A stretch of 59,861 bases of DNA, taken from NCBI GenBank assembly GCA_030699445.1, contig JAUYMO010000023.1, positions 1 to 59,861 of the forward strand. The letters run 5' to 3'. This document shows positions 3,903 through 55,544 of this stretch, one piece after another. Position 1 is the first letter of the stretch. Each line of letters starts with the position of its first letter. Under the pieces are notes generated by a model, which ran no database searches, was not told the DNA's origin, and saw only the letters and a program-made list of their open reading frames with translations. Made by a program: the position numbers and the translations under genes. The stretch comes from Candidatus Giovannonibacteria bacterium. GTDB lineage: Bacteria; Patescibacteriota; Minisyncoccia; UBA11713; 2-01-FULL-45-33.

Positions 3903-3905
3903 CTA

Positions 3906-3934
3906 TTGACTTTGTAATTTAACGGTGCTATACT
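3906..3934 (+). promoter_or_regulatory. sigma-70-type promoter (TTGACT-17-TATACT), copy 1 of a 33-bp perfect repeat
   Basis: ttgact at 3906-3911, a 17-nt spacer, tatact at 3929-3934. A GGAGG SD and the ATG at 3976 follow. The 33-mer 3903-3935 recurs exactly at 4681-4713. Confidence 0.6.
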
Positions 3935-3975
3935 AAAAACAGAATAAAACACAATAAACAAGAAAGGAGGAAAAG

Positions 3976-4559: not shown

Positions 4560-4683
4560 TTTATTTATTTTTACCGCGCATCGCAACAACAAAAATTTCG
4601 GAAAGATAGCGAGAGAGACTACCCAACTGTTTTTCGTTAAAACCCATAGTTTTATAATACTAAGCTTGCAATAAAACGCACTA

Positions 4684-4712
4684 TTGACTTTGTAATTTAA
4701 CGGTGCTATACT
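4684..4712 (+). promoter_or_regulatory. sigma-70-type promoter, copy 2 of the 33-bp repeat
   Basis: Same 33-mer as 3903-3935, at 4681-4713. It is followed by ggtggaaaggag SD and the ATG at 4782. Confidence 0.6.
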
Positions 4713-4781
4713 AGAACCAGAGCAAGACTGGGTTTAAATTATTGTTGTTTTTCAAAACCGAAAGGTGGAAAGGAGAGAAAG

Positions 4782-10396: not shown

Positions 10397-10611
10397 AAGC
10401 ATCGGCTCGCCTGCCCGCCTCCGGAGGGAACCATATTTTAGGAAAAGAAAATTTTTTAATCATGAAATTAAGAAACGAGAAACACCAGAGATGGTAATTT
10501 TTTGTCGCGCTTGACTTTCAACGCCAGACATGCTATTTTTACAACAGTACAAAAATTGAGTCACGGTGGCTCAATAATATGTTTTCAAACCAAAGAAAAG
10601 GGGGTGGTTAG

Positions 10612-13009: not shown

Positions 13010-13040
13010 AATATCCTCATTGTACCACTAAACCCAAAAT

Positions 13041-13062
13041 GTCAGAAGTTCAAGTTTTGACA
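13041..13062 (+). repeat. hairpin GTCAGAAGTTCAAGTTTTGACA, copy A (31 nt upstream of the RAYT-like gene)
   Basis: 7-bp stem GTCAGAA / TTTTGAC. Identical to 13261-13282. It contains TTGACA. Confidence 0.7.
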
Positions 13063-13092
13063 AAATATGGCGTTATAAGCTATTTTTAAAAC

Positions 13093-13764
13093 ATGCCTAG
13101 AGTTAAATTTGGTGAGGGCGAATATTATCATATTTTTAATAGAGGCGTAGACAAGCGCCAAATTTTTTCAAACGACGCTGATAGATGGCGTTTTCTTACG
13201 CTGTTATGTGTTTTGCAGGGAGAAAATTCTTTTCCGCAAATCGGCCGCATAGTGCCTTTTGTCAGAAGTTCAAGTTTTGACAATGAGATGTTCGACGGGA
13301 CTATAAAGACAAAATATGTGGAATTGGTAAGTTTTTGCCTAATGCCAAACCATTTTCATTTGAAAATACGTGAACTTAAAGAAGGTGGCGTCTCTAAATT
13401 TATGCAGCGTTTGCTGGGCGCTTATACCAAATACTTTAATATGCGCCATGGCCGCACAGGGCATTTATTCGGCAGCAGATTCCACGCGGTTCATATAGAC
13501 AGCAATAAATATTTAAATTATCTTTCTGCTTACATTCACTTAAATCCCCGCGAATTAAAAGAGTGGCGCGGCAAAGAAATAAAATATCCATGGTCCAGTT
13601 TTCAGGATTTTACTTTTAAGAATCGTTGGAACGCTTTTTTAAATACCTCAATTATTCTAGATCAGTTTGCCACAAGATCAGAATACAAAAAATTCGTAGA
13701 AGATACCCCCATTAAGGAGTTGCGCGAAAATTTACCGGAAGAATATCAGAAGTTCGAGTTTTGA
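13093..13764 (+). CDS. IS200/RAYT-like HUH Y1 transposase family protein (paralog 1)
   Basis: YHIFNRG, an HUH motif (PNHFHL), and YLSAYIHLNP (catalytic Tyr region), as in COG1943/RayT-type proteins. Confidence 0.75.
   Translation: MPRVKFGEGEYYHIFNRGVDKRQIFSNDADRWRFLTLLCVLQGENSFPQIGRIVPFVRSSSFDNEMFDGTIKTKYVELVSFCLMPNHFHLKIRELKEGGVSKFMQRLLGAYTKYFNMRHGRTGHLFGSRFHAVHIDSNKYLNYLSAYIHLNPRELKEWRGKEIKYPWSSFQDFTFKNRWNAFLNTSIILDQFATRSEYKKFVEDTPIKELRENLPEEYQKFEF
13261..13282 (+). repeat. same hairpin, copy B (inside the ORF, near codon 57)
   Basis: Exact 22-mer repeat of 13041-13062. It is translated as FVRSSSFD. Confidence 0.7.
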
Positions 13765-13766
13765 CA
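13746..13766 (+). repeat. same hairpin, copy C (overlaps the stop codon)
   Basis: TCAGAAGTTCGAGTTTTGACA, with 1 mismatch. It covers the TGA at 13762-13764. Confidence 0.65.
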
Positions 13767-13930
13767 GATTTGTGGAAACCGCCATTTGTGCTTGCACATT
13801 ACCCCGCTAACTTGACACGTATTTTTAATTATGCTACATTAATAGCGGGTTCAGAATGAGTCAAAAACCGAATCGGGAGAAAAATTTAAAAGCATTTCTT
13901 CCGTGTTCTTTTAAAAGAAAGGTGGGAGCA

Positions 13931-15901: not shown

Positions 15902-16741
15902 ATGAAACTCTTAATCTTCGGGGACGTGTTCGGGAAACTGGGAAGGGCGGGAGTAAAAATTATGCTACCGAAATGGCGGGAGAAATTTTCGCCGGATGTT
16001 GTTATCGCGAACATTGAAAATATCGCGCACGGAAAAGGAATCGGCATAAAACAAATCAACGAGCTAAAAGAAGCTGGCGTAAATATTTTTACCGGAGGCA
16101 ATCATTCGCTTGAAGGAAAAGATTTTGAAAAAGTTTTAAACGATGAAACTGTTCCGGTTTTGCGCCCCGCGAATATTCCTGCCTCACCGGCAGGCGGGCC
16201 CAACGCGCCGGGCAGGGGAGCTTTGGTTTACGAAGTGAAAACAACCGGCAAGAAACTTCTTGTAATAAATCTAATCGGCCAAGTTTTCATGAGGTCTGAA
16301 TATGAAAATCCGTTTCTGGCGGCGGATAAAATTTTAGAAGAATACGGCAATGAAACTCCTTACAAAATTCTGGATTGGCACGCGGACGCCACTTCCGAAA
16401 AAACCGTGATGGGCTGGTATCTGGACGGAAAAGTTTCGGCGGTTTTCGGCACGCATTCGCATGTGCCAACGGCCGACGCAAAAATTTTGCCCAAAGGCAC
16501 GGCGTATATTTCGGACATCGGCATGGTGGGACCGTTAAATTCAGTAATCGGCGTGGAAATTGAGCCGTCTATTAAAAGATTCAAAGATAAAATAAAAACC
16601 AAAATGGACCCGATTGAAAATGGCCCGATTGAGGTAAACGCGATTTTTGTTGAGTTGGAAGATGATACTGCTCGCAGTGAGCTTTGTCGAACTGTGGATA
16701 TCAGGCATTTGCGCGAAATCATTCCGGCGGGTAAGATATGA
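15902..16741 (+). CDS. ymdB: YmdB-family metallophosphoesterase (TIGR00282-like)
   Basis: LIFGDVFG, NIENIAHGKGI, DWHADATSEK and GTHSHVPTAD motifs, plus the conserved rny-ymdB pairing. It carries a palindromic element at 16178-16200. Confidence 0.85.
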   Translation: MKLLIFGDVFGKLGRAGVKIMLPKWREKFSPDVVIANIENIAHGKGIGIKQINELKEAGVNIFTGGNHSLEGKDFEKVLNDETVPVLRPANIPASPAGGPNAPGRGALVYEVKTTGKKLLVINLIGQVFMRSEYENPFLAADKILEEYGNETPYKILDWHADATSEKTVMGWYLDGKVSAVFGTHSHVPTADAKILPKGTAYISDIGMVGPLNSVIGVEIEPSIKRFKDKIKTKMDPIENGPIEVNAIFVELEDDTARSELCRTVDIRHLREIIPAGKI

Positions 16742-18266: not shown

Positions 18267-18328
18267 ACAAATTCACGTTCTCAAGCATCCTAATCCTAGC
18301 TTTTTTGCGCGGAAAATCAAGGTAAATT
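18267..18328 (-). repeat. 62-bp remnant copy of the yraN 3' end
   Basis: 56/62 identical to 19602-19663. On the minus strand it still reads LDFPRKKARIRMLENVNL-stop but is preceded by a stop codon. Confidence 0.8.
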
Positions 18329-19599: not shown

Positions 19600-19974
19600 T
19601 CACAAATTCACATTTTCCAGCATCCTAATCCTAGCTTTTTTACGCGTAAAATCAAGGAAAATTGCTACCACATCAATTTCAAAATCTTTGTCGTCCGCGA
19701 TTTTTCGTTCCGCGAGATAAGTTCTTATCGCTCGGGATAACCGCTGTTTTTTCCACGCCCGCACCGCATCCTCCGGCCGAAAGTTCGGATTGGAAATCGC
19801 TTTCACCTCCACAAAATGTAAAATCCCCTCTTTTTCTGCAATAATATCCAACTCGCCCCATTTTTTGCGGTAATTTCTTTCAACAATCTTAAATCCCCTC
19901 TTTTCCAAAAATCTGCACGCCAAGCCCTCCCCGATATTCCCGACTTTTTGCTTTTGCGTAATTTTCTTTGCCAT
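19600..19974 (-). CDS. yraN: YraN family endonuclease (UPF0102)
   Basis: GEGLACRFLEKRGFKIVERNYR..GELDIIA...HFVEVK is typical of UPF0102. Confidence 0.8.
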   Translation of the reverse strand: MAKKITQKQKVGNIGEGLACRFLEKRGFKIVERNYRKKWGELDIIAEKEGILHFVEVKAISNPNFRPEDAVRAWKKQRLSRAIRTYLAERKIADDKDFEIDVVAIFLDFTRKKARIRMLENVNL

Positions 19975-20470: not shown

Positions 20471-21623
20471 GCGAGCCGGTTTTATACGGCTTATAAAGAT
20501 AAACAATGTCGGCATGCCGAAACGCCTTGATGTATTGTTTCTCAAAGATACGGTGCTTGGACGAGGCAGAACCCGGCTCAAACATAAGAAATAGTCGTCG
20601 CCGCGCTTTCACGCCTTTTGCGTGAAACTTTGTTTTAAGCATAATTAATGTTTCACGGACGGCAGTAGGATGGTGAGCATAGTCGTCAATCACGGTTATC
20701 CCATTTTTCTCACCAATAATCTCGGACCGCCTTTTCACTCCTTTAAAGCTGGCTATGGCTTTTTTGATTGTTTCATGTGAAACGCCAACGAATCTTGCTA
20801 CGGCAATAGCCGCTTGAGTATTTTTGGCCATATAGTCGCCGTGTTTAAGCCCAAACAGTTTCATGCCTGCCCGCCGAAGCTTTAGCGTAGGCGGGTGAAA
20901 CTTATTCACCAATTCCATCACATTTTTGTCATAGCGGTTGGCAACTAAAAGGCCGTTATTCGGTATCAGATTTATGAAACGCGCGAAAGCGTATTTATAG
21001 GCCTCGAGATCCTTATATATATCCACGTGGTCGAGCTCAATGTTGTTTACCACCCCTATAAATGGGCGATAATGCCAAAACTTAGGACTTTTATCAAAAA
21101 AAGCCGTGTCATATTCATCGCCCTCTAAAACAATGTATTCGCCCTTGCCGAGTTTAAAAGTGCCATTAAAGTTTCCCGTGAACCCGCCGACAAACACGGT
21201 TGGGTCCAAACCGGCGCATTCCAAAATCCAGGCGATTAGTGCGGTGGTAGTCGTTTTGCCATGCGTGCCGGAAATTACAATGGCTTTCTTTCCAAAAATA
21301 AACTCATCTAAAAGTATATCGGACATTGACCGATATCCGCCAACTGGCGGATGTCCGTTAGAAAGCACGTGCTCCAATTCCGGATTGCCCCGGCCAATAG
21401 TATTACCAACAATTACCACATCCGGCTTCCAATGTTTCATGTGAAACGCCGAATATGGCGTGAAAACCTTGATTTTCAATTTTTCCAGCATACTTTTCAT
21501 CGGCTCATACATTTCCTGGTCCGAGCCGGCAACTTCGTAGCCCTTCCTTTTTAAAAGCCCCGCCAAGCTTGCCATTGCCACTCCGGCAATGCCGATTAAA
21601 TAGTAACGTTTCCCCTTTATCAT
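20463..21623 (-). CDS. mpl: Mur ligase family, UDP-N-acetylmuramate:tripeptide ligase (Mpl)-like, ends prematurely
   Basis: GIAGVAMASLAGLL, GNTIGRGNPE, GTHGKTTTTA, EGDEYDTAFFDKSPKFWHY and NNIELDHVDIY. The stop follows ...CUU AGG UAA and the reading continues in the +1 frame. Confidence 0.8.
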   Translation of the reverse strand: MIKGKRYYLIGIAGVAMASLAGLLKRKGYEVAGSDQEMYEPMKSMLEKLKIKVFTPYSAFHMKHWKPDVVIVGNTIGRGNPELEHVLSNGHPPVGGYRSMSDILLDEFIFGKKAIVISGTHGKTTTTALIAWILECAGLDPTVFVGGFTGNFNGTFKLGKGEYIVLEGDEYDTAFFDKSPKFWHYRPFIGVVNNIELDHVDIYKDLEAYKYAFARFINLIPNNGLLVANRYDKNVMELVNKFHPPTLKLRRAGMKLFGLKHGDYMAKNTQAAIAVARFVGVSHETIKKAIASFKGVKRRSEIIGEKNGITVIDDYAHHPTAVRETLIMLKTKFHAKGVKARRRLFLMFEPGSASSKHRIFEKQYIKAFRHADIVYLYKPYKTGSLR

Positions 21624-32464: not shown

Positions 32465-33049
32465 ATGTTTCAAATAGACCAAAAATTTCCGCATTTTTCT
32501 TTGGAGACATATAATCCGAAAAAGGATGAAGTGGGTAAAATTACCTTGAAAGACTTCGAAGAGGCCTGGTTAGTATTATTTTTTTATCCTGCGGATTTTA
32601 CATTTGTCTGCCCCACGGAACTTTTGGATTTAAACAAGCGGCATGAAGATTTCGCGAAAGAAAAAGCGGAGCTCGTCGGCGTCTCAACCGACACAGTTTT
32701 CACGCACAAGGCCTGGATTGAAACGGAAGAACTTTTGAAGGGCTTAAAATATCCGTTGGCGGCTGACCATAACGGAAAATTTTCAAGAGAACTTGGAATT
32801 TATGACGAAAATAACGGCATGGCCCAGCGCGCGGTTTTTATAATTGACCCGGACGGTATTTTGCGCGCCGTTGAGATTGTGGCGGACGCAATCGGCAGAA
32901 ATGCGTCCGAAATTTTGAGGAAATTAAAAGCTCTAAACTTCGTCCGCAAAAATCCCGGCCACGTCTGCCCTGCCTCTTGGGATGAAGGCGCGCAGACCCT
33001 ACAACCATCAATTAAAAAAGCAGGTAAGGTTTACAAAGAATGGCAGTAA
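32465..33049 (+). CDS. peroxiredoxin (2-Cys Prx/AhpC family)
   Basis: FFYPADFTFVCPTEL, and a resolving Cys in VCPASW. Confidence 0.9.
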   Translation: MFQIDQKFPHFSLETYNPKKDEVGKITLKDFEEAWLVLFFYPADFTFVCPTELLDLNKRHEDFAKEKAELVGVSTDTVFTHKAWIETEELLKGLKYPLAADHNGKFSRELGIYDENNGMAQRAVFIIDPDGILRAVEIVADAIGRNASEILRKLKALNFVRKNPGHVCPASWDEGAQTLQPSIKKAGKVYKEWQ

Positions 33050-34569
33050 AACTCCATTCGGCGGAAGTTGTTGGTTTGGAGGGAAAAATTATTGACGTGG
33101 AAATTGATCTCTCGCGCGGACTTTTTAGTTTCGCGATTGTGGGGCTCGCGGATAAGGCAATCGCCGAATCCAAAGAAAGAGTCTCCGCGGCGATAAAAAG
33201 CCTCGGGGCCAAGCCGCCTAACCAAAAAAACCAGCGAGTCACGATTTCTCTGGCTCCGGCGGATTTAAAAAAGGAAGGGCCGGCTTTTGATTTGCCCATA
33301 GCGCTTTCCTACCTTTTGGCCTCCAAACAAGCAAATTTTGAAACAAAAAATAAAATTTTTCTGGGCGAGCTCGCTTTAGATGGCGCCCTTCGCCCAATAA
33401 AGGGCTCTTTGGCCCTTGCCGAAACCGCCAAAAAGAAAGGATTTTCCGAAATATTTTTGCCCGCGGGAAACGGCGCCGAAGCGTCTTTAATTGAGGGCAT
33501 AAAAGTTTTTGAAGCCGCTTCTCTGGAGGAAATTTTAAACCATCTGGAAAATAAAGTTTTAATAAAAGAATTCCCGCCGACAAAATTTATAAAATCAGAA
33601 TTTTCTTTCACGACGGATTTTTCCGACATCCGCGGGCAGGAATCCGCAAAAAGGGGGTTAGAAATCGCGGCGGCGGGCTCGCATAACGCTCTTATGATAG
33701 GCCCGCCGGGCACGGGAAAAACCATGCTGGCGCGGGCGTTTTCCACAATTTTACCTCCGCTTTCCCGCGACGAAGCGCTGGAGGTCACAAAAATACATTC
33801 CATATCGGGCGCTTTGAAAGAAAATGAAACTTTAATCAGAGAGCGCCCTTTTAGAAATCCGCATCATACGTCTTCTTACATTTCGTTAGTCGGCGGAGGC
33901 AGTTATCCAAAGCCCGGAGAAATAACTTTGGCCCACAGGGGAGTTTTATTTTTAGACGAGTTCGCGGAATTTGAAAGGCGGGTGATTGAAGTTTTGCGCC
34001 AGCCACTGGAAGATAAAGTGGTAACAGTTGCCCGCGCTAAAGCCACCCTGACTTTCCCGGCGCAAATTATGCTGATTTTGGCGATGAACCCATGCCCTTG
34101 CGGAAATTTGGGTTCCAATAAAACCTGCATCTGCCCAACCTCGGCCATCAATCGTTATCAAAGAAAAATTTCCGGGCCGATTGTTGACCGGATTGATTTG
34201 TGGCTGGGTGTTTACGGCATTGAACATAAAAAATTGGAAGACGACCCGCCGGGAACCAGAAGAGAAAAGTCGGATGAAATACGCAAGCGCGTTGAGTATG
34301 CGCGGGAAACCCAGAAAAAAAGATTTGCCGGAAGCAAAATTATGACCAACTCTGAAATGTCCGTTCGAGATATTAAAAAATATTGCGTTTTGGACGACGA
34401 ATCAAAATCAATTTTACAGCAAGCCGCCGCTCGGCTGGATTTATCTCCGCGTTCTTACCACCGCGTCATCAAACTCGCCCGCACCATCGCCGATCTGGAA
34501 AACACAAAAGAAATAAAAAAAGAACATTTGCTGGAAGCTTTACAATACCGCCCGAAACAATTGGTATAA
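33040..34569 (+). CDS. comM: YifB/ComM Mg-chelatase-like AAA+ ATPase
   Basis: Lon-like N-terminal domain, Walker A (GPPGTGKT), LFLDEF, a CPCG..C.C motif and C-terminal SPRSYHRVIKLARTIADLE. Confidence 0.9.
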   Translation: MAVKLHSAEVVGLEGKIIDVEIDLSRGLFSFAIVGLADKAIAESKERVSAAIKSLGAKPPNQKNQRVTISLAPADLKKEGPAFDLPIALSYLLASKQANFETKNKIFLGELALDGALRPIKGSLALAETAKKKGFSEIFLPAGNGAEASLIEGIKVFEAASLEEILNHLENKVLIKEFPPTKFIKSEFSFTTDFSDIRGQESAKRGLEIAAAGSHNALMIGPPGTGKTMLARAFSTILPPLSRDEALEVTKIHSISGALKENETLIRERPFRNPHHTSSYISLVGGGSYPKPGEITLAHRGVLFLDEFAEFERRVIEVLRQPLEDKVVTVARAKATLTFPAQIMLILAMNPCPCGNLGSNKTCICPTSAINRYQRKISGPIVDRIDLWLGVYGIEHKKLEDDPPGTRREKSDEIRKRVEYARETQKKRFAGSKIMTNSEMSVRDIKKYCVLDDESKSILQQAAARLDLSPRSYHRVIKLARTIADLENTKEIKKEHLLEALQYRPKQLV

Positions 34570-34580
34570 AACAAAAGAAA

Positions 34581-34919: not shown

Positions 34920-34982
34920 GAAAACATAAAAAAAGAGCACCTCCTTGAGGCGCTCCAGTATAGGCCGAAACAGTTGATATAA
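34920..34982 (+). repeat. remnant copy 2 of the comM 3' end
   Basis: It reads KNIKKEHLLEALQYRPKQLI-stop, against EIKKEHLLEALQYRPKQLV-stop in comM. Many differences are synonymous. A stop codon lies just upstream. Confidence 0.8.
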
Positions 34983-35215
34983 ATGTATAGCTATGCTATG
35001 AATTTATCCACACACGATAACGGCTACAAATTGTTATAATAATTAAGTGCCTAATAAATGCGGGCACAGAAGGGGATAAAGGTTTTTGAATCACATTTAG
35101 GTTTTGGAGGCCTATAATGTTTGACGAATCCTAAATCTTGTAACTTCTTGGGCGTGGAATCCCTTAAAGCATCCCCTTCTGAGCTCGAACTTCCGAGACA
35201 TTTTTTATTTATTTT

Positions 35216-35611: not shown

Positions 35612-35714
35612 GTTCTAATTGTATCATGCGCAATAAAAAAAACAATAGCAAGTGTGTGGATAAGTTTTTTTAAAACTAAAAGTCCTTGTTTATAAGGTGT
35701 TTTTAGAGCGAAAC

Positions 35715-35771
35715 ATAAAAAAAGAGCACCTGCTAGAGGCGCTCCAGTATAGGCCGAAGTCGCTAATTTAG
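35715..35771 (+). repeat. remnant copy 3 of the comM 3' end
   Basis: It reads IKKEHLLEALQYRPKSLI-stop. Confidence 0.8.
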
Positions 35772-36136
35772 ATAAACCCTTTAGGCGCGGCTTCTTGCTC
35801 TTCTTGGCACAGCGGGTTTTTTTCGCCAGCCAAATCACAGAATTTTTGCTTGGTCCTAGCCAGCTTTTCATCCGCGGCTTCGTTTTCGTCTATTATTTTA
35901 GAAAGCCGCTGCTTAATCTGGGTATTTTCAGCCAGCGTTGCTTGCCTCGCTTTAATCGCAAGCTCTATTAACTCCTCCTTATGGCTGATACCGAGGTCAA
36001 CTCTTTCCGAAAAAGCTTGTTTATATTCTTTTAACGCATTATTAAGTCGGGCTTGATGAACTAGCTTTGGAATAAAGCCTGTCAGCATACCAGCAACAAA
36101 AATAACGAACGCCCAAATAAGATATCTTTTAACCAT
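35768..36136 (-). CDS. hypothetical TM plus coiled-coil protein (122 aa)
   Basis: N-terminal TM helix, then a helical region. No family recognised. Confidence 0.5.
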   Translation of the reverse strand: MVKRYLIWAFVIFVAGMLTGFIPKLVHQARLNNALKEYKQAFSERVDLGISHKEELIELAIKARQATLAENTQIKQRLSKIIDENEAADEKLARTKQKFCDLAGEKNPLCQEEQEAAPKGFI

Positions 36137-38192: not shown

Positions 38193-39989
38193 ATGCTAGA
38201 TTTAGCGTTGTTAAATTCCAAACAAAAAGAGGCGGTGGAGGCCACAGAAGGGCCGGTTTTGGTTGTGGCGGGCGCCGGAGCGGGAAAAACCAAGGTCATC
38301 ACCGAGCGGATTAAATATTTAATTGAAAAAGATGTTCCACCCGAATCAATTTTGGCAGTTACTTTCACAAATAAAGCCGCGGGGGAGATGAAAAGCCGCG
38401 TGGCGCGTTCCGGCCCATTCATCGGCACTTTTCACGCTTTGGGGCTTTTAATTATCCGCGAAAACCTGAAAGGGCTAGGCATTGCCAAAAATTTTACTAT
38501 TTTAGACGAAGATGACGCCCTAAAACTCATAAAAGAATGCCTTTTGGAGTTAAAAATTGACCCGAAGCAATTTGACCCGTCCAGAATCAGAAATAATATT
38601 TCCCGCTTGAAAAATCAGATGATGACGGCGGATGAGTTTATTGAGGAAAGCGCATTTGGAAAAATACTGGGGAGAGTCTGGCGGCTTTATGAAGAAAAAA
38701 CCAAAGCGCAGAATTTGCTGGATTTTGACGATTTGCTTTTAAAGCCGGTTTTGCTTTTTAAAAAAGATGCCGAGGCGCTGAAAAAATATCAGGAGCGCTG
38801 GCGCTACATCCATATAGACGAATACCAGGATACAAACGAAGCGCAATATGTTTTGTCAAAAATGCTTGCGGAAAGTAGCCGCAATATTTTGGCGGTGGGC
38901 GACATTGACCAGGCAATCTACAGCTGGCGGGGAGCGGATTTTAAAAATGTTTTGAATTTCCAAAAAGATTATCCGGACGCCAAAGTTGTTTTTCTGGAAG
39001 AAAATTACCGCTCCACCGATATTATTTTGGAAGCGGCAAACGCCGTTATAACGCATAATAAATTCCGCATACCAAAAAATCTATGGACAAAAAGAACCGG
39101 CGAAAACCAAATCCGGATTTTTTTCGCGGAAGACGAAAAAAAGGAAGCGGAAATGGTCGCCAGCGAAATAAAATTCCTGAAAACAAAAATAAAATTGAGC
39201 GAAATGGCGGTTCTTTACCGCACCAACGCCCAATCGCGCGCCATGGAAGAAGTTTTTTTGGCGAAAAATATTCCTTATAAAATTACCGGCGGAGTGCGTT
39301 TTTACGAAAGGCGCGAAATAAAAGATTTAATAGCGTATCTAAGGCTTATTAGAAATCCGGAGAACGGATTGAGCTACAATAGAATCGCGAATGTCCCGCC
39401 GCGCAAAAAAAAGAAAATAGATTTTGACGCGCTTATAGAAAATTTACGTAACGATACTGACAATATAAACGCGCAAGAACTCCTAAAAAAAATTATTAGT
39501 AAAATAGAATATAGAGACTATATTGATGACGGAACGGAGAAGGGAAAAGAAAGATGGCAAAATGTGGAAGAGCTTCTGGGTCTCGCCCAAAAAATAGAAA
39601 ATTTGGATGAATTTTTGGAGCATATTTCTCTTTTTGCCATAGATGATAATTACGATAAAATTGAGGACCGCGTGAGTTTAATGACCATGCATTCAGCCAA
39701 AGGGCTTGAATTTGAAGCTGTTTTTGTGGTTGGCTTGGAAGAGGGGCTTTCCCCGCACACGCTTTCATTTGAACCGGAGGATTTGGAAGAAGAGCGCCGG
39801 CTTTATTACGTGGCCATAACCCGCGCCAAAACTCATCTCTATCTGACCGCGGCCGGGCGCCGGACTCTTTTCGGCGAGCGCGCGGCGAATATGCCTTCCA
39901 GATTTTTAAAAGAAATCCCCGAGCATTTGCTGGTTTATTTAAATAAACGGGAGGGCGAAGAAATAGAAGAAAATATTTATGTTGAATAA
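38193..39989 (+). CDS. uvrD: UvrD/PcrA/Rep-family DNA helicase (short, 598 aa)
   Basis: AGAGAGKTKV, DEYQDTN, VGDIDQAIYSWRGA, LEENYRS, TMHSAKGLEF and YVAITRAK. Confidence 0.9.
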   Translation: MLDLALLNSKQKEAVEATEGPVLVVAGAGAGKTKVITERIKYLIEKDVPPESILAVTFTNKAAGEMKSRVARSGPFIGTFHALGLLIIRENLKGLGIAKNFTILDEDDALKLIKECLLELKIDPKQFDPSRIRNNISRLKNQMMTADEFIEESAFGKILGRVWRLYEEKTKAQNLLDFDDLLLKPVLLFKKDAEALKKYQERWRYIHIDEYQDTNEAQYVLSKMLAESSRNILAVGDIDQAIYSWRGADFKNVLNFQKDYPDAKVVFLEENYRSTDIILEAANAVITHNKFRIPKNLWTKRTGENQIRIFFAEDEKKEAEMVASEIKFLKTKIKLSEMAVLYRTNAQSRAMEEVFLAKNIPYKITGGVRFYERREIKDLIAYLRLIRNPENGLSYNRIANVPPRKKKKIDFDALIENLRNDTDNINAQELLKKIISKIEYRDYIDDGTEKGKERWQNVEELLGLAQKIENLDEFLEHISLFAIDDNYDKIEDRVSLMTMHSAKGLEFEAVFVVGLEEGLSPHTLSFEPEDLEEERRLYYVAITRAKTHLYLTAAGRRTLFGERAANMPSRFLKEIPEHLLVYLNKREGEEIEENIYVE

Positions 39990-40770
39990 GCAAAAAAAGT
40001 TTTTGGGCCAGCATTTTCTAAAAAATAAAAAAATCTTGGAGGAGATGGCGCGCGCGGCGGAAATTTCTAAGAAAGATATTGTTTTGGAAGTCGGCCCGGG
40101 CTTGGGCTCGCTTACGGAAATTTTGGCGGAGCGCGCCGGAAAAGTAATCGCGATAGAAAAAGACAGGGATTTAATTCCTGTTTTGCGCGAGAAATTCAAA
40201 AATTATAAAAATGTTGAAATTATTGAAGGAGATATTTTAAAAATTAAATACCTCCCCTTGCCCCTCCTTGTAAAGGAGGGGATAAAACATTATAAAATTG
40301 TCGCCAATCTTCCATACTATATAACCTCGCGTTTTCTGCGCCTATTCTTGTCCCAAACCAGGTTTAGGTCAAAGCTGATGGTGCTTATGGTTCAAAAAGA
40401 AGTCGCCGAAAGAATTTTGGCGCGCGACGGAAAGGAATCTTTGCTTTCTCTTTCCGTAAAAGCTTACGCTAAAGCGGAAATTATACGGCGCGTTTCAAAA
40501 AATTTTTTCTCGCCTCCGCCAAAAGTTGATTCGGCAATAATTAAGCTAACCCCTTACCCCCAAACCCCCTTTCCCCTTCGTAAGGGGAAAGGGGGCGATG
40601 TTGAAAAAATTCTTGCCGTTGCTAAAATCGCCTTCCAGCAAAAACGCAAAATGCTCCGGCATTCTCTTTCGAGGTTCAACCTTAATAATTTAGAAGAATA
40701 TGGAAATAAGCGCCCGGAAGAACTTAGCTTTAAAGACTGGGTTCATATTCACACCCTAATTGTGCCGTAA
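39979..40770 (+). CDS. rsmA: 16S rRNA (adenine1518/1519-N6)-dimethyltransferase RsmA/KsgA
   Basis: LGQHFL, EVGPGLGSLT, ANLPYYITS and FSPPPKVDSA. Two GC hairpin elements lie inside the ORF (40251-40283 and 40550-40596). Confidence 0.9.
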   Translation: MLNKQKKFLGQHFLKNKKILEEMARAAEISKKDIVLEVGPGLGSLTEILAERAGKVIAIEKDRDLIPVLREKFKNYKNVEIIEGDILKIKYLPLPLLVKEGIKHYKIVANLPYYITSRFLRLFLSQTRFRSKLMVLMVQKEVAERILARDGKESLLSLSVKAYAKAEIIRRVSKNFFSPPPKVDSAIIKLTPYPQTPFPLRKGKGGDVEKILAVAKIAFQQKRKMLRHSLSRFNLNNLEEYGNKRPEELSFKDWVHIHTLIVP

Positions 40771-46001: not shown

Positions 46002-46709
46002 ATGGATGAAACAAATAAAAACATAGAAATAATGGAGCGATATAAAGACCTGCCGGAAGATATCCAGCAAGCTCTCTTTTCATCCGCGACTTCGGATGCG
46101 ATTTTAGCAATCGGCAAAAAAAATGGGCTGGCAATTGATAAAATCGGGGAGTTGGTTGATGAAACCGGTTTGGTAATGCTTGGAATCACTTCGCCTTCGG
46201 ATTATGTAAAAAATCTGGTGAGCCGATTAAGTGTAACGCAAGAAAAGGCGCGCGCCATCGCGGAAGAAATCAACCAAAAAGTTTTCCAGCCGGTAAGAGA
46301 GTCGCTGAAGAAGATTCATGGGTTGGCGGCAGAAAAGCCCACACCACCCCCCCCAGCCCCCCCCTTCGTAAGGGGGGGAGCTGAAGAAAAACCCCTTCCC
46401 CCTTACGAAGGGGGAAGGGAAGGGCTAGGGGTTAAAAAACCTCTCCCCAAACGCGAAGATATTGTCCCGCCGCCCAAAGCGCTTCCCAAACCGGAAATCC
46501 CGGAACCACTTCTAATCCCGCCGATTTTCGTTAAAAAATTTCCCGAGCCGATAGTTTCTAAACCCGATATTGTTCCTCCCGCGAAAGAACCGTTGCCGCA
46601 AGATTCTCTCGCGGCCAAAAGCGCGCTGGATAAAGAATTAAACGCTCCGCCATCACCGCGGCCACAGCAGTATAAAGAAAAAGACCCTTATCGTGAGATA
46701 ATAGAATAA
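46002..46709 (+). CDS. Pro-rich protein (T4SS-like locus)
   Basis: Globular N-terminal 105 aa, then a P-rich tail that includes two C-run/G-run hairpin elements (46357-46378 and 46393-46419). Confidence 0.5.
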   Translation: MDETNKNIEIMERYKDLPEDIQQALFSSATSDAILAIGKKNGLAIDKIGELVDETGLVMLGITSPSDYVKNLVSRLSVTQEKARAIAEEINQKVFQPVRESLKKIHGLAAEKPTPPPPAPPFVRGGAEEKPLPPYEGGREGLGVKKPLPKREDIVPPPKALPKPEIPEPLLIPPIFVKKFPEPIVSKPDIVPPAKEPLPQDSLAAKSALDKELNAPPSPRPQQYKEKDPYREIIE

Positions 46710-46710
46710 T

Positions 46711-47133
46711 ATGCAGCACCAAGTCCCACAATTTATAGATATAGAAGATAAAATTTTCGGGCCTTTAACGGCCAAGCAGTTTTTCTATATCTTGGGCGGC
46801 GCCGCTATTCTTTTTATAATGTACGTTTATCTTCAGCTTTGGCTGGTAATTATTCTTGGCGCTCCGGTCGCGGCGTTCGCCGGTTCTCTGGCGTTTTTGA
46901 AAATCAACGGCCAGCCATTTATTAAAATTCTTGGGAGCGCCATAGATTACGCTTCTTCGGCAAGATTATATTTGTGGAAGAAGAGCCCGCCGCGCGGGAA
47001 AACACTCGGTGTTTTTGGGGATTCAACACCGAGTGTTGAGGAGCGCGAGCGGGCTACAACCCCCAAACTCACCCAAAGCAAATTACAAGATTTATCCTGG
47101 TCCTTAGACATCCAAAAAAATATTAAACGATAA
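46711..47133 (+). CDS. PrgI-family (VirB3-analogue) membrane protein
   Basis: QVPQFIDIEDKIFGPLTAKQFFYILGG plus two TM helices, directly upstream of VirB4-like genes. It carries the 37-nt element at 47001-47037. Confidence 0.65.
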   Translation: MQHQVPQFIDIEDKIFGPLTAKQFFYILGGAAILFIMYVYLQLWLVIILGAPVAAFAGSLAFLKINGQPFIKILGSAIDYASSARLYLWKKSPPRGKTLGVFGDSTPSVEERERATTPKLTQSKLQDLSWSLDIQKNIKR

Positions 47134-52159: not shown

Positions 52160-52873
52160 ATGAAAGAATCTTTTCAACCAAGTGAATCGCCGGAGAAAGA
52201 GAAGGGGTCTCTTTGGCAAACGTTTAGAGATATGAAAAACGCGGTGGCGTTCGCGGCGCTTTTGGCGTTCGCCGCTCCGGGGATTACCTCCGCCCAAGAA
52301 AAAGAAACTCGCCCGGAAGGAACAAAAATCAGCGATACGGAAAGGGGAATTGAAAAAATAAAAGAAGATGTTTTAAAAATCGCCGAGAGCTTGAAAATAA
52401 AAGGGCGAGAGGGAAAATTCGGGCAAACGGCAACTCGCAGGTGGGTTTCAGAAAATAAGGAGGTTATTGTCGCTGGTTACGAAAATGATGGCAAGGCGCG
52501 CTGGATAATTTTAGAGAATGAAAACGCGCAGATGAGATTTTTTGATATGTCGGCGGATGGCTCTGTGAATAGAGTTATTATTAACGATGAAAAATCGCCC
52601 GCCGGAAGAAAGGCAACCGATAATGATATAAAAACTTTTGTTTCTATGGATAAATTAGCCAAAGACGCACGCGTATCAGCTGATTTAATGCCGGAAAAAG
52701 CGCATGTGTACGAGCTCGGAAAAGAAAACAATGAGATTATACTGCGCGGAGTTGATTTTGAAAAAGGTGAGTCCGAAAAAGTAATCGGGCCGGAAGCAAA
52801 AAAGCTCGCGGAAAGAGTCCAAAACTTATTTAACGCGAAAGTCGCCCAACACAGCGCGGAGCTTGCGAAATAA
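52160..52873 (+). CDS. secreted hypothetical protein
   Basis: ATG at 52160 after a TTGTCA-16-TATAAA promoter. Signal-like AVAFAALLAFAAPGITSAQE. The ORF track starts at the GTG at 52088. Confidence 0.5.
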   Translation: MKESFQPSESPEKEKGSLWQTFRDMKNAVAFAALLAFAAPGITSAQEKETRPEGTKISDTERGIEKIKEDVLKIAESLKIKGREGKFGQTATRRWVSENKEVIVAGYENDGKARWIILENENAQMRFFDMSADGSVNRVIINDEKSPAGRKATDNDIKTFVSMDKLAKDARVSADLMPEKAHVYELGKENNEIILRGVDFEKGESEKVIGPEAKKLAERVQNLFNAKVAQHSAELAK

Positions 52874-52874
52874 A

Positions 52875-54101
52875 ATGGAAAATTTATTAACAAAAAGAAA
52901 TATAATAATCGCGGGGGTGGGAATAGTTATTCTCATCGGAATTTTGTTTTATTTTGGGTCAAAAAGCGGGACGCAGGGAACGGGAGGGGGGGGATTTTTA
53001 GGAACTATTTTTCCGTCTTCGGCGCCCTCCCCAACACTCGGTGTTGGCGGGCCTCAAACACCGAGTGTTTTGCCAGGCGGCGAACTGCCTCTAACCCCTC
53101 AAGCCGCCCAAAGTTTGCCTGTGGGCACATTAATTCGCTTGAGTGATGATAATATTTCTTCTCTTGTTGGAGTTGGCACAACGTCAGTCCGCTACCATAA
53201 AAATATTCCTGAAAATCTTGGGCATCTTTTTGAAAGGCGCGCGGACGGCGCGAGCGAAGAAAAAAGGATTTCCAATTTCACCATTCCGCAGGTTTTGCGC
53301 GTGGTCTGGGCGCCGGACGCCAAGCGCGCCGTGATTTTTTATAATTTAGATAATCAAATAAGAAAACTTTTGATTGATTACTCAACCACAACCCCAAAAA
53401 CGAATTTTCTTCCGGACGCCGTTTCGGATGTGGCTTTTTCTCCCGATTCCAAATCGCTGGCGTTTATAAATGATAGTGGTGACACCCAAAATATTTTTAC
53501 GGCAACGTCTGATTTTAAAAACCAAAGAAAAATTTTGGATAACGACATTCCTGGCCTGGAAATTTCCTGGCCGGCCGCGAACACAATCGCTTTAAAAACA
53601 AAATCATCCTACGCCGTGCGCGGATTTTTATACGCGGTTAATATAGGAAGCGGGGCATTTTCAAAAATCGCCGAAGGGCTGGGCTTGGACGCCATTTGGA
53701 ATAAAGACGGCTCGGGAGTGCTTTATTCCAGAAGCGACGCGGACGGCAATATATTGAACATTAAATTTTTGGACATAAAAACCGGCGCGGAAAAAGAATT
53801 TTCAGTAAAAACCATCGCTGAAAAATGCGCGTTTTTAAATACCTTAAAAAATATCGCTTACTGCGGAGTCCCCCGATTAAGCGCAGGCCGGATTACCGAA
53901 AAGCAGCCCGACGCATGGTGGCAGGGAAAAGTAAGTTTCCAAGATAATTTTGTTTCGCTGGACACCGCGACCGGCCAAAATTCTGTTTTTGTCCCGACTC
54001 CCACAGACATTACCCAGCCAAAACTGCTTTTAGACGATTCTTCCCTCCTTTTCCGCGACAAAACCTCCGGCAATCTTTGGAGCTTAAAATTGAAGCCTTA
54101 G
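52875..54101 (+). CDS. membrane-anchored TolB-like beta-propeller protein
   Basis: TM helix (IIIAGVGIVILIGILFYF), a Gly/Pro linker with the 37-nt element (53033-53069), and PD40-like repeats (VAFSPDSKSLAFINDSGD). Confidence 0.5.
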   Translation: MENLLTKRNIIIAGVGIVILIGILFYFGSKSGTQGTGGGGFLGTIFPSSAPSPTLGVGGPQTPSVLPGGELPLTPQAAQSLPVGTLIRLSDDNISSLVGVGTTSVRYHKNIPENLGHLFERRADGASEEKRISNFTIPQVLRVVWAPDAKRAVIFYNLDNQIRKLLIDYSTTTPKTNFLPDAVSDVAFSPDSKSLAFINDSGDTQNIFTATSDFKNQRKILDNDIPGLEISWPAANTIALKTKSSYAVRGFLYAVNIGSGAFSKIAEGLGLDAIWNKDGSGVLYSRSDADGNILNIKFLDIKTGAEKEFSVKTIAEKCAFLNTLKNIAYCGVPRLSAGRITEKQPDAWWQGKVSFQDNFVSLDTATGQNSVFVPTPTDITQPKLLLDDSSLLFRDKTSGNLWSLKLKP

Positions 54102-54318: not shown

Positions 54319-54790
54319 ACGCCAAATCAAGCGGTTTGATGACAACTCGCCGTTCCAAACCCTGGCCGGTTGATTCGGTCGCGATGTCCGGATATTCCTG
54401 CAGAACATAATGCACGATTCTGCGTTCGTAGGCGTTCATCGGACGCATCTCCATCGGTTTTTTAAAATAGCGGACGCGCTGGGCGTGCATGCGCGCCGCG
54501 TCTTTTATTTCCTCAATCTTTTTTTTATTGTAATCGTTGATGTCTATTAAAAACTGGAATTTTATTTCCGGAAATTTCTGCTCGTAAATTCTTTTTATAA
54601 CATGTGAAAGCGCGCTTAGATGCTTGCCGTTGTCGCCTATCAAAAGCGGAGCGTCCTGGGCTTTGATAATAAACCAGCTGTCCTCGCCGCCTTCTTGAAA
54701 TTCCAAGGAAAAAGAAAATCCCATCCGGCGAAGCAGAGTTTTAATGGAGCTTTCAACAAATTCTATTTGCGGTTTTTTATCCTCCTGCAT
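54317..54790 (-). CDS. jag: Jag/KhpB-type KH plus R3H RNA-binding protein
   Basis: R3H motif region YERRIVHYVLQEYPDIATES.G, and the conserved position next to yidC. Confidence 0.8.
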   Translation of the reverse strand: MQEDKKPQIEFVESSIKTLLRRMGFSFSLEFQEGGEDSWFIIKAQDAPLLIGDNGKHLSALSHVIKRIYEQKFPEIKFQFLIDINDYNKKKIEEIKDAARMHAQRVRYFKKPMEMRPMNAYERRIVHYVLQEYPDIATESTGQGLERRVVIKPLDLA

Positions 54791-55544
54791 GTGAAAGCGC
54801 CTCCTTCGCTTTTTTGCGAACGCGCGCTTCGTGCACTATAGCAAAAACATTCATGGCTGTCCAATATAGAGAAACCGCGGCCGGCAGTTTAAAGCCCAAA
54901 ATAAAAATAATAAATGGGAAAATGTAAAGCATCTGCCATTGCATCGCCTGCGCCATACCCGCCTGCCGGTCGGGCAGGTCACCTTTGGCGGGAGATGCGG
55001 ATTTGGGCGGCCCGCCTGCCGGCGAGGCAGGCATAGCCAGTTTTGCCTGCCAAAATTGTGAAAGCGCCGCTAAAGCGGCTAATCCAACATTCGCGCTGGT
55101 TAAAGAAATAAAACCTAAAAACATTGTATTTATATTTTCCGGTATTTTTAAAAAAGAATAAACATCGCCGGCCGGAAAAGGAAGCCCATACAAAAAAACC
55201 TGGTACATGGCAAAAAGTATCGGGAGCTGGATTAGCAGCATGCCAAATCCGGAAAGCGGATTTATGCCGTGTTTTTTGTAAAGCTCCATCAAAGCTTTGG
55301 CCTGGTCTTCTTTGTTTTTTTTGTCCGCGTAGATTTTTTTGACTTCCGGCTCAATAATTTTCATCGCGTTTTGAGTTTTGAGCATTTTATGCGTCATCGG
55401 AAACATCAGCGCCCTTATTATCACGGTGAGCAAAATAACCGCCAAACCCAAATCGTGCCCCGGAAGCACCGCGGTTAAAAAGATAAGCGCGTTTAAAATC
55501 GGCTTGTAAAAAAATATGTTAAAAAATATTTTGAGCCAGGACAT
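54777..55544 (-). CDS. yidC: membrane protein insertase YidC (short form)
   Basis: LAVILLTVIIRALMFPMTHK, ELYKKHGINPLSG and AVSLYWTAMNVF. It contains two palindromic elements (54958-54978 and 55011-55031). Confidence 0.88.
   Translation of the reverse strand: MSWLKIFFNIFFYKPILNALIFLTAVLPGHDLGLAVILLTVIIRALMFPMTHKMLKTQNAMKIIEPEVKKIYADKKNKEDQAKALMELYKKHGINPLSGFGMLLIQLPILFAMYQVFLYGLPFPAGDVYSFLKIPENINTMFLGFISLTSANVGLAALAALSQFWQAKLAMPASPAGGPPKSASPAKGDLPDRQAGMAQAMQWQMLYIFPFIIFILGFKLPAAVSLYWTAMNVFAIVHEARVRKKAKEALSHAGG

Follow-up and report, generated by a model that had tools for sequence, protein, structure and literature searches.

Why does the same short GC-rich palindrome lie in frame within two unrelated essential genes of one genome? 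The question arose in a stretch of 59,861 nt, here called the window, which represents ~60 kb of the source genome (Candidatus Giovannonibacteria bacterium, assembly GCA_030699445.1, contig JAUYMO010000023.1). An initial annotation had reported one palindromic sequence in an ORF named ymdB and two in an ORF named yidC; all three were found where it had placed them, and Pfam matches bear out both gene names (Table 1).

Table 1. Copies of the 21-nt element in the window, the genes that contain them and a nearby transposase gene
Feature	Position	Strand	Description
RAYT-like Y1 (HUH) transposase gene	13093..13764	+	2.4 kb upstream of copy A; passes the curated Pfam cut-off for Y1_Tnp (E 4.5e-11)
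ymdB	15902..16741	+	YmdB-family metallophosphoesterase, 279 aa; Pfam PF13277 (YmdB), E 4.9e-86; PDB 4B2O, E 9e-62
Copy A, CCTGCC-TCA-CCGGCAGGCGGG (21 nt)	16178..16198	+	in ymdB; read PASPAGG, YmdB residues 93-99
23-mer with copy A, CCTGCCTCACCGGCAGGCGGGCC	16178..16200	+	read IPASPAGGPN
yidC	54777..55544	-	membrane protein insertase, 255 aa; Pfam PF02096 (60KD_IMP), E 1.6e-40
Copy C, CCTGCC-CGA-CCGGCAGGCGGG	54958..54978	-	second yidC copy, CCCGCCTGCCGGTCGGGCAGG, in a frame other than that of copy B; read (D)LPDRQAG, residues 190-196
Copy B, CCTGCC-TCG-CCGGCAGGCGGG	55011..55031	-	first yidC copy; read PASPAGG, residues 172-178
23-mer with copy B, CCTGCCTCGCCGGCAGGCGGGCC	55009..55031	-	read MPASPAGGPP

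Chance or composition was ruled out as the source of the three window copies, since the motif counts lie far above the expectation from shuffles. The pattern CCCGCCTGCCGG-NNN-GGCAGG has three matches in the window (one in ymdB and two in yidC) vs 0.06 expected; in shuffles of the window the expectation is likewise 0.06 for the consensus CCCGCCTGCCGGNNNGGCAGG (three matches) and 0.08 for CCTGCC-N5-GGCAGG (three matches), and it is 0.00 for the 23-mer with up to three mismatches (two matches). The annotation had named a motif frequency no higher than that expected from composition as a result that would refute its idea; the frequency observed is ~50 times higher.

In one orientation the element reads CCTGCC-NNN-CC-GGCAGG-CGGG (family pattern CCTGCC-NNN-CCGGCAGGCGGG). 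Read on the other strand, the tag 5'-CCCG comes first, and CCTGCC and GGCAGG then pair in a stem of 6 bp that encloses a loop of 5 nt. Loops CGT, TCG and CGA are the dominant variants, and all master variants start with CCTG and end with CGGG. Copy B is the exact master with the TCG loop, copy A is this TCG variant with a single G-to-A change, and copy C is the CGA-loop master. We also considered a palindrome extending over the full length, as variants like CCTGCCTGTCCGACAGGCAGG are perfect palindromes with 10-bp arms, yet positions 13-15 are fixed and positions 7-9 vary, which favours a 6-bp stem with a tail. The 6-bp hairpin, as the annotation had proposed, is the predicted minimum-energy fold, but it is modestly stable: folding energies of the DNA hairpin (-5.8 to -6.7 kcal/mol, z -1.3 to -2.1) are not exceptional for such GC-rich composition. 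An automated count of covariation was discarded as contaminated by self-overlapping reverse-strand matches. An Rfam scan of the window detected eight tRNAs only and no RNA family at any of the three sites; with regard to replication-strand bias, the GC skew of the window was too weak for placing an origin.

The 21-mer comprises exactly seven codons, and none of its six frames contains a stop, so that its insertion never breaks a reading frame; this would allow it to live inside genes.

Empty and filled sites in related genomes

Relative to close orthologues, each window copy is a clean insertion of 21 nt (7 aa). The initial annotation had inferred an insertion of about seven residues in ymdB from the sequence of B. 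subtilis YmdB. This sequence was confirmed (PDB 4B2O has RPANFPE------GTPGKG vs RPANIPASPAGGPNAPGRG in the window), and the insertion is directly visible in the DNA alignment as an exact 21-bp gap in two relatives (L002 and L003). YmdB proteins at 82-87% identity read ANI-------PNAPGRG at this site, with no insert peptide, and another relative (L001) has copy A with one mutation. A translated peptide across insert junctions would read, for example, ...ANIPASPAGGPNAPGR....

Copy B is missing in all aligned YidC orthologues, including one at 96% identity (P0121) that has no PASPAGG. The copy C peptide, LPDRQAG, is absent from YidC proteins at 88-94% identity; the site of copy C is empty in L234 and L004, where it reads GA|TATGG, and is occupied by diverged copies in L233 and L005. 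Nothing is duplicated at the empty sites GA|TATGG and ATT|CCG, i.e. the target-site duplication is absent. In both YmdB and YidC the orthologues without the DNA motif are also without the peptide; persistence of the peptide in such orthologues was the other outcome that would have refuted the annotation.

Filled sites can be followed across independent assemblies as well: the orthologous site of YidC reads LPDRQAG, PPDRQAG, PPDRQTG or LPDQRAS, and that of YmdB reads PASPAGG or PASLAGG. Indels of at least 12 nt between the window and relatives at 84-87% identity are GC-rich palindromes almost without exception, and among them a fourth copy was found, in opposite orientation, in rnpA of L004. 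The rnpA site differs between L004 and L005, and between these two an orthologous copy has exchanged a T-A for a C-G pair, whereby the stem is preserved. Presence or absence of seven amino acids inside protein clusters of at least 90% identity was detected for S6 (PPAGRAG) and PheT (PPAGEAG), as well as for YidC. Copy B occurs in none of the other genomes compared, and 1 nt in 23 separates it from the ymdB copy; on this evidence the element is active in this lineage or was so recently.

Carriers, reading frames and target sites

The scan of metagenomes gave at least 120 loci matching the family pattern, and 29 IMG/VR loci match it too. The three loops CGT, TCG and CGA make up 108 of the 127 metagenomic copies among the matches listed, a dominance not to be expected if sequences matched the fixed positions at random. 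Carriers are Parcubacteria and Microgenomates (candidate phyla radiation, CPR), prophage contigs of Bacillota MAGs, and metagenomic and viral contigs; those with names are Gottesmanbacteria, Yanofskybacteria/Wildermuthbacteria, Vogelbacteria, and Bacillota and Defluviitaleaceae MAGs. Among the matches listed, the GC content of the metagenomic and viral carrier contigs ranges from 32 to 73%. The density is ~7 per Mb in most relatives vs three per 60 kb in the window. One prophage contig of 18.9 kb has 13 copies within its tape-measure, tail-sheath and terminase genes; no relative of this copy-dense contig was found among GenBank phages. The exact 21-mer had no match in 50,697 GenBank phage records or in 72,556 plasmids (partial matches appeared near E = 10), and the element has so far been seen only in uncultivated material.

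An ORF-spanning test placed 101 of 175 copies in one clearly dominant long ORF; the other 74 cases were ambiguous or short. All six frames are used by these 101 copies (26, 23, 21, 17, 8 and 6), with 48 copies in sense and 53 in antisense orientation relative to the ORF. The two frames that contain Cys are depleted (14 copies vs 34 expected). Inserts of another kind, the byps of Magnusiomyces mitochondria, are kept in the mRNA and skipped by the ribosome. For the 21-mer, the seven-codon stop-free design and the depletion of Cys frames argue for translation rather than ribosome bypass; the element would be read as seven extra residues, although this is inferred from frame statistics, with no peptide data available.

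Surface loops had been expected at the outset as the places where the inserts would map, and in AlphaFold2 models both host loops are indeed coil with pLDDT <50. Copy A overlaps the only long stretch of the YmdB model with pLDDT <50 (residues 96-100); copies B and C share one low-confidence loop of YidC (residues 171-192, with pLDDT <50 at 174-191). The inserts are in loops predicted as disordered, and, as far as such models can tell, copies are retained at places where the added residues belong to disordered surface loops.

Analysis of flanking sequences (n = 174) revealed a T bias at position -2, mixed bases at -1 and, at +1, a base after the element that is rarely A; for 44% of copies, the base at -1 is the complement of that at +1. 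The target preference is weak, of the purine|pyrimidine type, and across the 174 flanks there is no conserved 4-5-nt target of the IS200/IS605 type. Duplication of a single target nucleotide was rejected, as it fits ~53% of the flanks only. The flanks contribute nothing to the element sequence. Copies may also be nested (7 of 172), and in five of these seven cases the inner copy follows nt 10 of the outer one.

Origin of the copies

We interpret the motifs as copies of a mobile DNA element of 21 nt that is GC-rich, an imperfect palindrome and non-autonomous; as a whole, this explanation has, in our estimate, a probability of about 0.7. The element enters genes as an exact +21-nt insertion, in either orientation and without target-site duplication; by inference, it would be selfish, with no host function, and new copies would be made from existing ones upon mobilisation in trans. 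The likeliest route, also an inference, would be a single-stranded DNA hairpin handled by a RAYT-like HUH/Y1 tyrosine transposase of the family abundant in CPR. We hold more tentatively, at somewhat less than even odds, that no smaller self-propagating DNA element has been seen to date, that the 21-mer moves across phyla, probably on phages, by an unrecognised duplication-free insertion which also hits the centre of its own copies, and that it is a significant, overlooked source of variation in protein length in CPR and uncultivated phages.

A RAYT-like Y1 transposase is our best guess for the mobiliser, though a doubtful one: the link has not been demonstrated and activity on the 21-mer is untested. 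The best NCBIfam match of the window gene is the REP-associated tyrosine transposase (REP_Tyr_transpos), with 38 bits; scores for this model were 38-45 bits, below the cut-off of 80, as for a distant relative. Homologues are located within 6 kb of elements in three loci (L141, L154 and L185), and a homologue in L205 contains an element. Altogether, 4 of the 120 loci with elements (among the matches listed; the window is extra) have a RAYT-like gene that is close to an element or contains one, and the control had none in 1.24 Mb of yidC-centred loci and none in ~1 Mb of viral loci. This proximity signal is weak (estimated p ~0.02) and the control is imperfect; the RAYT-like family is itself abundant in CPR, with 3638 homologues. 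A sample of 14 loci with a RAYT-like gene at the centre (138 kb, small and partly redundant) had no element copy; the 21-mer thus does not form a REPtron-type arrangement with the RAYT-like genes examined. The RAYT-like gene of the window is flanked by a different, AT-rich palindrome of 24 nt, TGTCAGAAGTTCAAGTTTTGACAA. Pfam annotation of 150 ORFs neighbouring the elements (best 25 families) revealed ordinary housekeeping genes and no recurrent transposase; among 89 ORFs of the copy-rich prophage contigs (again the best 25 families) there were phage structural genes only. Identical 21-mers in contigs of 32-73% GC are hard to reconcile with REP/RAYT systems, which are vertically inherited and species-specific. 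Compared with the RAYT-like step, mobilisation by an unknown enzyme or along a repair-templated route has at least equal probability.

Movement without any dedicated transposase would mean that host repair or replication copies an existing 21-mer into breaks or gaps (e.g. by insertion templated at nicks, blunt breaks or hairpin loops, or by ligation of a free hairpin oligonucleotide) and that phages spread it. The absence of target duplication, the weak purine|pyrimidine preference, the equal use of both orientations and the insertion into the single-stranded centre of existing copies all suit such a route, as do the lack of a transposase recurring beside the copies (best 25 Pfam families listed) and the presence of copies in viral contigs and, densely, in prophages. 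We nevertheless consider it unlikely. Repair-templated insertions are usually ragged, whereas the length of exactly +21 and the ends are invariant at every examined site; moreover, a sequence that is identical in different phyla implies constraint by a protein that recognises it specifically, and to our knowledge no repair-type mechanism spreads a fixed sequence. A site selected for host function, be it for DNA uptake, for protein binding or, as an mRNA hairpin, for tuning of translation or stability, could explain why the stem is conserved and the loop variable, why an orthologous copy has a compensatory stem change and why mRNA hairpins including flanks reach -15 to -22 kcal/mol. This explanation appears quite improbable given that copies arise as whole 21-nt insertions rather than by point mutation, occur in unrelated genes, in all frames and in both orientations, are polymorphic between near-identical strains, accumulate in decaying prophage genes, are carried by unrelated phyla and have a low density in most relatives.

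Each palindrome might instead have formed independently in place, by template switching or quasi-palindrome mutation, without moving between sites. This has some appeal in this clade, where GC-rich hairpins exceed local shuffles by a factor of 3-7 and other short GC-rich palindromic indels (a 12-nt one, for example) may form in this way. Such a process cannot explain why one 21-mer, with its loop, recurs at unrelated sites and in genomes that are not related, nor why the flanks contribute nothing; for the 21-mer family the shared sequence already refutes it, and we give it hardly any weight. No more credible is an artefact of sequencing or assembly (an adapter-like hairpin, or an assembler with k = 21) or a chance low-complexity Pro/Ala/Gly stretch. 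A length of 21 nt does equal the smallest k of common assemblers, and all copies come from metagenome-derived sequence, with no exact match in collections of cultured phages or plasmids. However, copies at orthologous sites of YidC, YmdB and rnpA were inherited and have diverged in independent assemblies made with different pipelines, their flanks are exactly contiguous, the Cys-containing frames are depleted, and chance is excluded by the shuffles.

Relation to known repeats and mobile elements

In the searchable literature we found no matching description, including for the 21-mer itself or for RAYT/REPIN in CPR; the element is apparently undescribed. In our reading the mobile 21-mer would work like Rickettsia palindromic elements (RPEs), intragenic REPs (repetitive extragenic palindromes) and the GC clusters of yeast mitochondria, while being far smaller and shared across phyla.

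Classical RPEs, of ~100-150 bp, are known only from Rickettsia. They are palindromic repeats located in frame in functional, often essential genes, where they add tolerated peptide segments, and are deemed selfish (PMC3733652). The suggestion of the initial annotation that a shared palindromic element, RPE-like but much shorter, is in frame in two unrelated essential genes is supported: like RPEs, including the short RPE-4 and RPE-6, the 21-mer forms in-frame palindromic inserts that leave ORFs intact (ymdB and yidC here; rnpA, S6 and PheT elsewhere). Unlike RPEs, it is a 21-nt unit whose exact sequence is shared across phyla (Parcubacteria, Microgenomates and Bacillota). REPs are stem-loops of 20-40 nt formed by imperfect palindromes, one end of which has the tetranucleotide GTAG or CGTC as its tag (Di Nocera et al. 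2013, PMC3733652); the units are mostly extragenic, downstream of ORFs, and occasionally intragenic, encoding extra residues (PMC3733652). The 21-nt stem-loop with its 6-bp stem, 5-nt loop and tetranucleotide tag 5'-CCCG resembles them. RAYT-like genes, distant relatives of the REP-associated ones, occur in the window and, abundantly, in the clade. However, the tag is neither GTAG nor CGTC, most copies are assigned to one long ORF that clearly dominates, the three in the window are all intragenic, no copies flank the RAYT-like genes at the 14 loci examined, and the sequence occurs in different phyla, not in one species.

GC clusters of yeast mitochondria are ~30-50 bp long. They are mobile, polymorphic among strains and sometimes in frame in a protein gene (var1), with the loop as the fastest-changing part; most are intergenic, and their AG/TAG terminal repeats are read as target duplications (PMC8811140). 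The element is likewise a short GC-rich mobile palindrome in a more AT-rich genome, strain-polymorphic, in-frame and loop-variable, but it has no terminal repeat or duplication, is mostly in ORFs (in resolvable cases) and is bacterial or phage-borne. Elements of the IS200/IS605 type share with it the precise, duplication-free insertion and a DNA hairpin in place of terminal inverted repeats. IS608 and ISDra2 depend on a fixed target of 4-5 nt, 3' of which they insert, and on two separate hairpins at their left and right ends; the 21-mer has a single hairpin and a weak purine|pyrimidine preference only. DUS/USS motifs of 9-12 nt accumulate by point mutation to about one per kb genome-wide, whereas the element arises by insertion of 21 nt and is much sparser, in the window as in relatives. 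MITEs have terminal inverted repeats and a target-site duplication and are 70-300 bp in size (PMC3733652). The element, with 21 nt and no duplication, does not fit this description.

If the mobile-element reading holds, the range of in-frame palindromic 'gene parasites', so far Rickettsia, a few REP families and yeast mitochondria, would widen to include CPR and phages. CPR genomes are small and densely coding (~89% of the window is in ORFs), and the seven-codon stop-free design would illustrate how selfish DNA persists with almost no non-coding space. Many unexplained seven-residue length differences between near-identical proteins would be accounted for, which is relevant to alignments, phylogenies and structure prediction for CPR, and the element would offer a natural marker for strain tracking. 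Identification of its mobiliser could reveal a minimal system of DNA insertion without target duplication.

The window has further palindromes. In IMG/VR scans the counts for CCCCTTCGTAAGGGG and TCCGCCAGCTGGCGGA were inseparable from chance, and the AACACTCGGTGTT pair had no match. Other palindromes of the clade may still be of local origin; the 12-nt insertion CCGCCAGCTGGC completes a palindrome from flanking bases.

Element copies and empty sites in ymdB and yidC

All three motif sequences reported in the initial annotation were present exactly at their assigned positions (see the table). The motif proved more frequent than composition predicts, so this refuting condition did not apply: three patterns had 2, 3 and 3 matches in the window versus 0.00, 0.06 and 0.08 expected from shuffles keeping dinucleotide content. 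The analysis covered 60 kb of the source genome, and the GC content of this window is ∼44%; its best protein matches were named Candidatus Giovannonibacteria and Nomurabacteria, thus the window represents a Parcubacteria (CPR) genome. PASPAGG is the reading of both the ymdB copy and yidC copy 1 (one frame); yidC copy 2 is in a different frame and reads LPDRQAG. Since the copies are read in differing frames, the repeat belongs to the DNA and not to the peptide. Loop triplets in the window are TCG (yidC copy 1 and, with one change, ymdB) and CGA (yidC copy 2).

Positions of the 21-nt element and of other repeats (window coordinates unless a relative's locus is named)
Feature	Position	Strand	Sequence and context
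21-nt element, ymdB	16178-16200	+	CCTGCCTCACCGGCAGGCGGGCC; inside 279-aa YmdB-family ORF 15902-16741
21-nt element, yidC copy 1	55009-55031	-	CCTGCCTCGCCGGCAGGCGGGCC; inside 255-aa YidC ORF 54777-55544
21-nt element, yidC copy 2	54958-54978	-	CCCGCCTGCCGGTCGGGCAGG; same yidC ORF
24-nt palindrome	13040-13063		just upstream of RAYT-like gene
24-nt palindrome	13260-13283		inside RAYT-like gene; identical, read FVRSSSFD
24-nt palindrome	13744-13767		3′ end of RAYT-like gene; 88% identical
Second hairpin family	40261-40281, 40565-40595		ksgA/rsmA ORF 39979-40770
Second hairpin family	46357-46378, 46392-46419		ORF 46002-46709
Third palindrome	47001-47037		ORF 46711-47133
Third palindrome	53033-53069		ORF 52863-54101
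12-nt PPAG insertion	L001 1427-1440		ymdB
12-nt PPAG insertion	L004 and L005, matching window ∼54564		jag
63-nt repeat, downstream copies	34922-34984, 35711-35773

The ymdB region had been described as an insertion relative to B. subtilis YmdB, and orthologues without the motif were expected to lack the peptide; both statements held. The B. subtilis protein (PDB 4B2O) has no such segment, and the ymdB DNA alignment contains a clean 21-bp gap (ATT[CCTGCCTCACCGGCAGGCGGG]CCC versus ATT/CCG). Among 35 aligned YmdB orthologues, relatives with 82-87% identity read ANI-------PNAPGRG versus ANIPASPAGGPNAPGRG in the window; the segment was present only in P0002, the closest relative, where it is mutated to PASLAGG. 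PASPAGG of copy 1 was found in no aligned YidC orthologue, one at 96% identity included; the LPDRQAG site had diverged in some relatives (PPDRQAG, PPDRQTG, LPDQRAS) and was missing from others at 88-94% identity. At the DNA level the empty yidC sites are GA/TATGG and AT(C)/CCGCC, with no bases duplicated or lost except for one adjacent substitution.

We catalogued all indels of at least 6 nt that separate the window from its four closest relatives (84-87% nucleotide identity); GC-rich palindromes make up almost every one of 12 nt or longer. A fourth copy of the 21-mer was located in rnpA of one relative (L004), in orientation opposite to the gene; another relative (L005) carries at this site a variant with stem pair T-A changed to C-G. 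The element is a fixed 21-nt unit that inserts exactly, in both orientations, at new positions, and it has been recently active.

Wider family, reading frames and host loops

The element is common to distant lineages. The pattern CCTGCC-NNN-CCGGCAGGCGGG was found at 29 loci in IMG/VR and at least 120 loci in JGI metagenomes. Its free loop triplet is non-random: among the matches listed, 108 of 127 metagenomic copies have CGT (70), TCG (31) or CGA (7). These master variants differ at loop positions 7-9, while stem arms and tail are constant. The predicted fold has a 6-bp stem, a 5-nt loop and a 4-nt tail; its stability is modest (DNA dG −5.8 to −6.7 kcal/mol, z −1.3 to −2.1), reaching −15 to −22 kcal/mol in mRNA context with flanks.

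Element-bearing contigs among the matches listed span 32-73% GC, and source protein names indicate as CPR carriers Gottesmanbacteria (Microgenomates), Yanofskybacteria/Wildermuthbacteria and Vogelbacteria. Beyond the CPR, copies occur in two MAGs, one of a ‘Firmicutes/Bacillota bacterium’ and one of Defluviitaleaceae. The Bacillota contigs are prophages and encode tail-sheath, tape-measure, portal and terminase proteins; one of 18.9 kb holds 13 copies, and those in its tape-measure protein read DPPAGRAGS, LPVRQAGE and others. Further host genes are trigger factor, PBP2, PheT and S6 (source-named) and, apparently, by N-terminal sequence, MiaA, MutL, ProS and GltX. In S6 and PheT clusters (≥90% identity) seven residues occur in some members only (QAN[PPAGRAG]VSGG and WVGD[PPAGEAG]GTE). 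Across 80 yidC-centred loci of related genomes there are only ∼7 copies per Mb; expansions are therefore specific to particular lineages.

In three contigs the element is duplicated together with its surroundings: copies have identical flanks in L132 (6727-8669, at a spacing of ∼960 nt resembling that of a gene segment repeated in tandem), L184 (41-569) and L204 (1372 and 5999, inverted orientation).

The CGT-loop master has no stop codon in any of six frames (PARPAGG, CPSGRR, LPVRQAG, PACRTGR, RLPDGQ, PPAGRAG). Among the matches listed, 101 copies had one spanning ORF that was clearly longest; they occupied every frame, with 48 sense and 53 antisense and only 14 in the two Cys-containing frames versus ∼34 expected. 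This pattern is consistent with insertion at random and later selection acting on a translated product, translation being inferred. The expectation that inserts lie in surface loops was supported by AlphaFold2 models based on the aligned orthologues. In YmdB the insert (residues 93-99) is coil and overlaps the only long stretch with pLDDT<50 (residues 96-100); the YidC inserts (172-178 and 190-196) fall in loop 171-192, of which residues 174-191 have pLDDT<50. Copies persist where the loop that receives the seven additional residues is disordered.

In the flanks of 174 copies among the matches listed, we found no target duplication. Preferences were weak: T is favoured at −2, +1 is rarely A (3-7%), and 44% of copies have complementary bases at −1 and +1 (most commonly A/T and G/C). 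Nested or abutting copies numbered 7 of 172 among the matches listed; in five the inner copy follows nucleotide 10 of the outer one, far above the expectation for random landing.

A sequencing or assembly artefact is excluded, as independent assemblies made with different pipelines show inherited, diverged copies at orthologous sites. Local template switching cannot yield a sequence that is identical, even in its loop, at sites unrelated to each other. A functional motif selected by the host does not fit either: whole-unit insertions occur in all frames, are polymorphic at strain level and accumulate in decaying prophage genes. We infer a selfish, non-autonomous element whose existing copies would serve as the source of new ones, with mobilisation in trans.

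The suggested likeness to Rickettsia palindromic elements (RPEs) holds for the way of working, as it does for intragenic REPs and yeast mitochondrial GC clusters. However, the element does not reach RPE length; it lacks the GTAG/CGTC tag, extragenic location and RAYT flanking of REPs, the terminal duplication of GC clusters and MITEs, and the fixed target of IS200/IS605. No prior description was found in full-text literature, the 21-mer sequence itself included.

Candidate mobiliser

On its other strand the element has a 5′-CCCG tag and then a stem-loop. REP elements are arranged in this way, and RAYT (Y1/HUH) transposases have been proposed to mobilise them as single-stranded hairpins (PMC3733652). 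In favour of such an enzyme, the window encodes a RAYT-like protein (Pfam Y1_Tnp, E 4.5e-11) whose gene is 2.4 kb upstream of the ymdB copy; the protein's top NCBIfam match is REP-associated tyrosine transposase, below cut-off. The family is plentiful in CPR (3638 homologues, two in one Giovannonibacteria assembly). Three metagenomic loci (L141, L154, L185) have homologues no more than 6 kb from elements, and in a fourth (L205, ∼620-1053) the RAYT-like gene itself holds a nested element pair at 833-853, just after the HUH motif (...LHAARLPDGQGQAGA...). The yidC-centred loci (1.24 Mb) and the viral loci (∼1 Mb) contained no homologues. Against the proposal, 14 loci centred on RAYT-like genes had no copy of the element, no recurrent transposase was found adjoining element copies, the flanks of 174 copies showed no fixed tetranucleotide target, and the palindrome that flanks the gene in the window is another one, 24 nt long. 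With evidence on both sides, mobilisation by a RAYT-like enzyme is possible but doubtful; the mobiliser was not identified, and an unknown enzyme or a repair-templated route is at least as likely.

The 24-nt palindrome (TGTCAGAAGTTCAAGTTTTGACAA, AT-rich) has three copies in or around the RAYT-like ORF 13093-13764, which is syntenic in the relative L002; it may be the enzyme's own REP-like partner.

Other palindromes and repeats

A second intragenic hairpin family has core CCCCTTCGTAAGGGG, with 3 exact occurrences in the window versus 0.11 expected; core copies read PFPLRKGKGG, APPFVRGG and PLPPYEGG, and ksgA also carries CCCCTCCTTGTAAAGGAGGGG. The L006 orthologue of ORF 46002 lacks the 22-residue stretch bearing both copies. 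Matches to the core in IMG/VR were not clearly above chance. A third palindrome, AACACTCGGTGTT-N11-AACACCGAGTGTT, has 13-nt arms and differing loops; both copies are in one frame (TLGV...TPSV) in variable linker regions, the second site has a shorter version in L004, and IMG/VR gave no match.

A 12-nt insertion forms the perfect palindrome (T)CCGCCAGCTGGCGG(A), read PPAG, with 7 occurrences in six related genomes; a variant, ATCCGCCAACTGGCGGAT, is at window 21335-21352. Because flanking bases are used, it could stem from template switching rather than transposition.

The 3′ part of the window's ymdB (∼16663-16690) encodes a further insertion of ∼8 residues, ARSELCRT, in a C-terminal region varying widely among orthologues (AGSELCRT, SAKASAAK, SAKATAGK and others). 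Other YmdB orthologues have inserts of 20-70 residues with element-like peptides (SPAGRAG, SPAGEYAG), which suggests hot spots where inserts accumulate.

Two 48-nt repeats (3903-3950 and 4681-4728, 90% identical; weaker third copy at 10508-10555) resemble a duplicated promoter, TTGACT-N17-TATACT. ORF 33040-34569 has at its 3′ end a 63-nt sequence (34509-34571) with two downstream repeats at 71-86% identity, and a separate 62-nt pair (18267-18328 and 19602-19663) is 90% identical; both may be remnants of local duplication.
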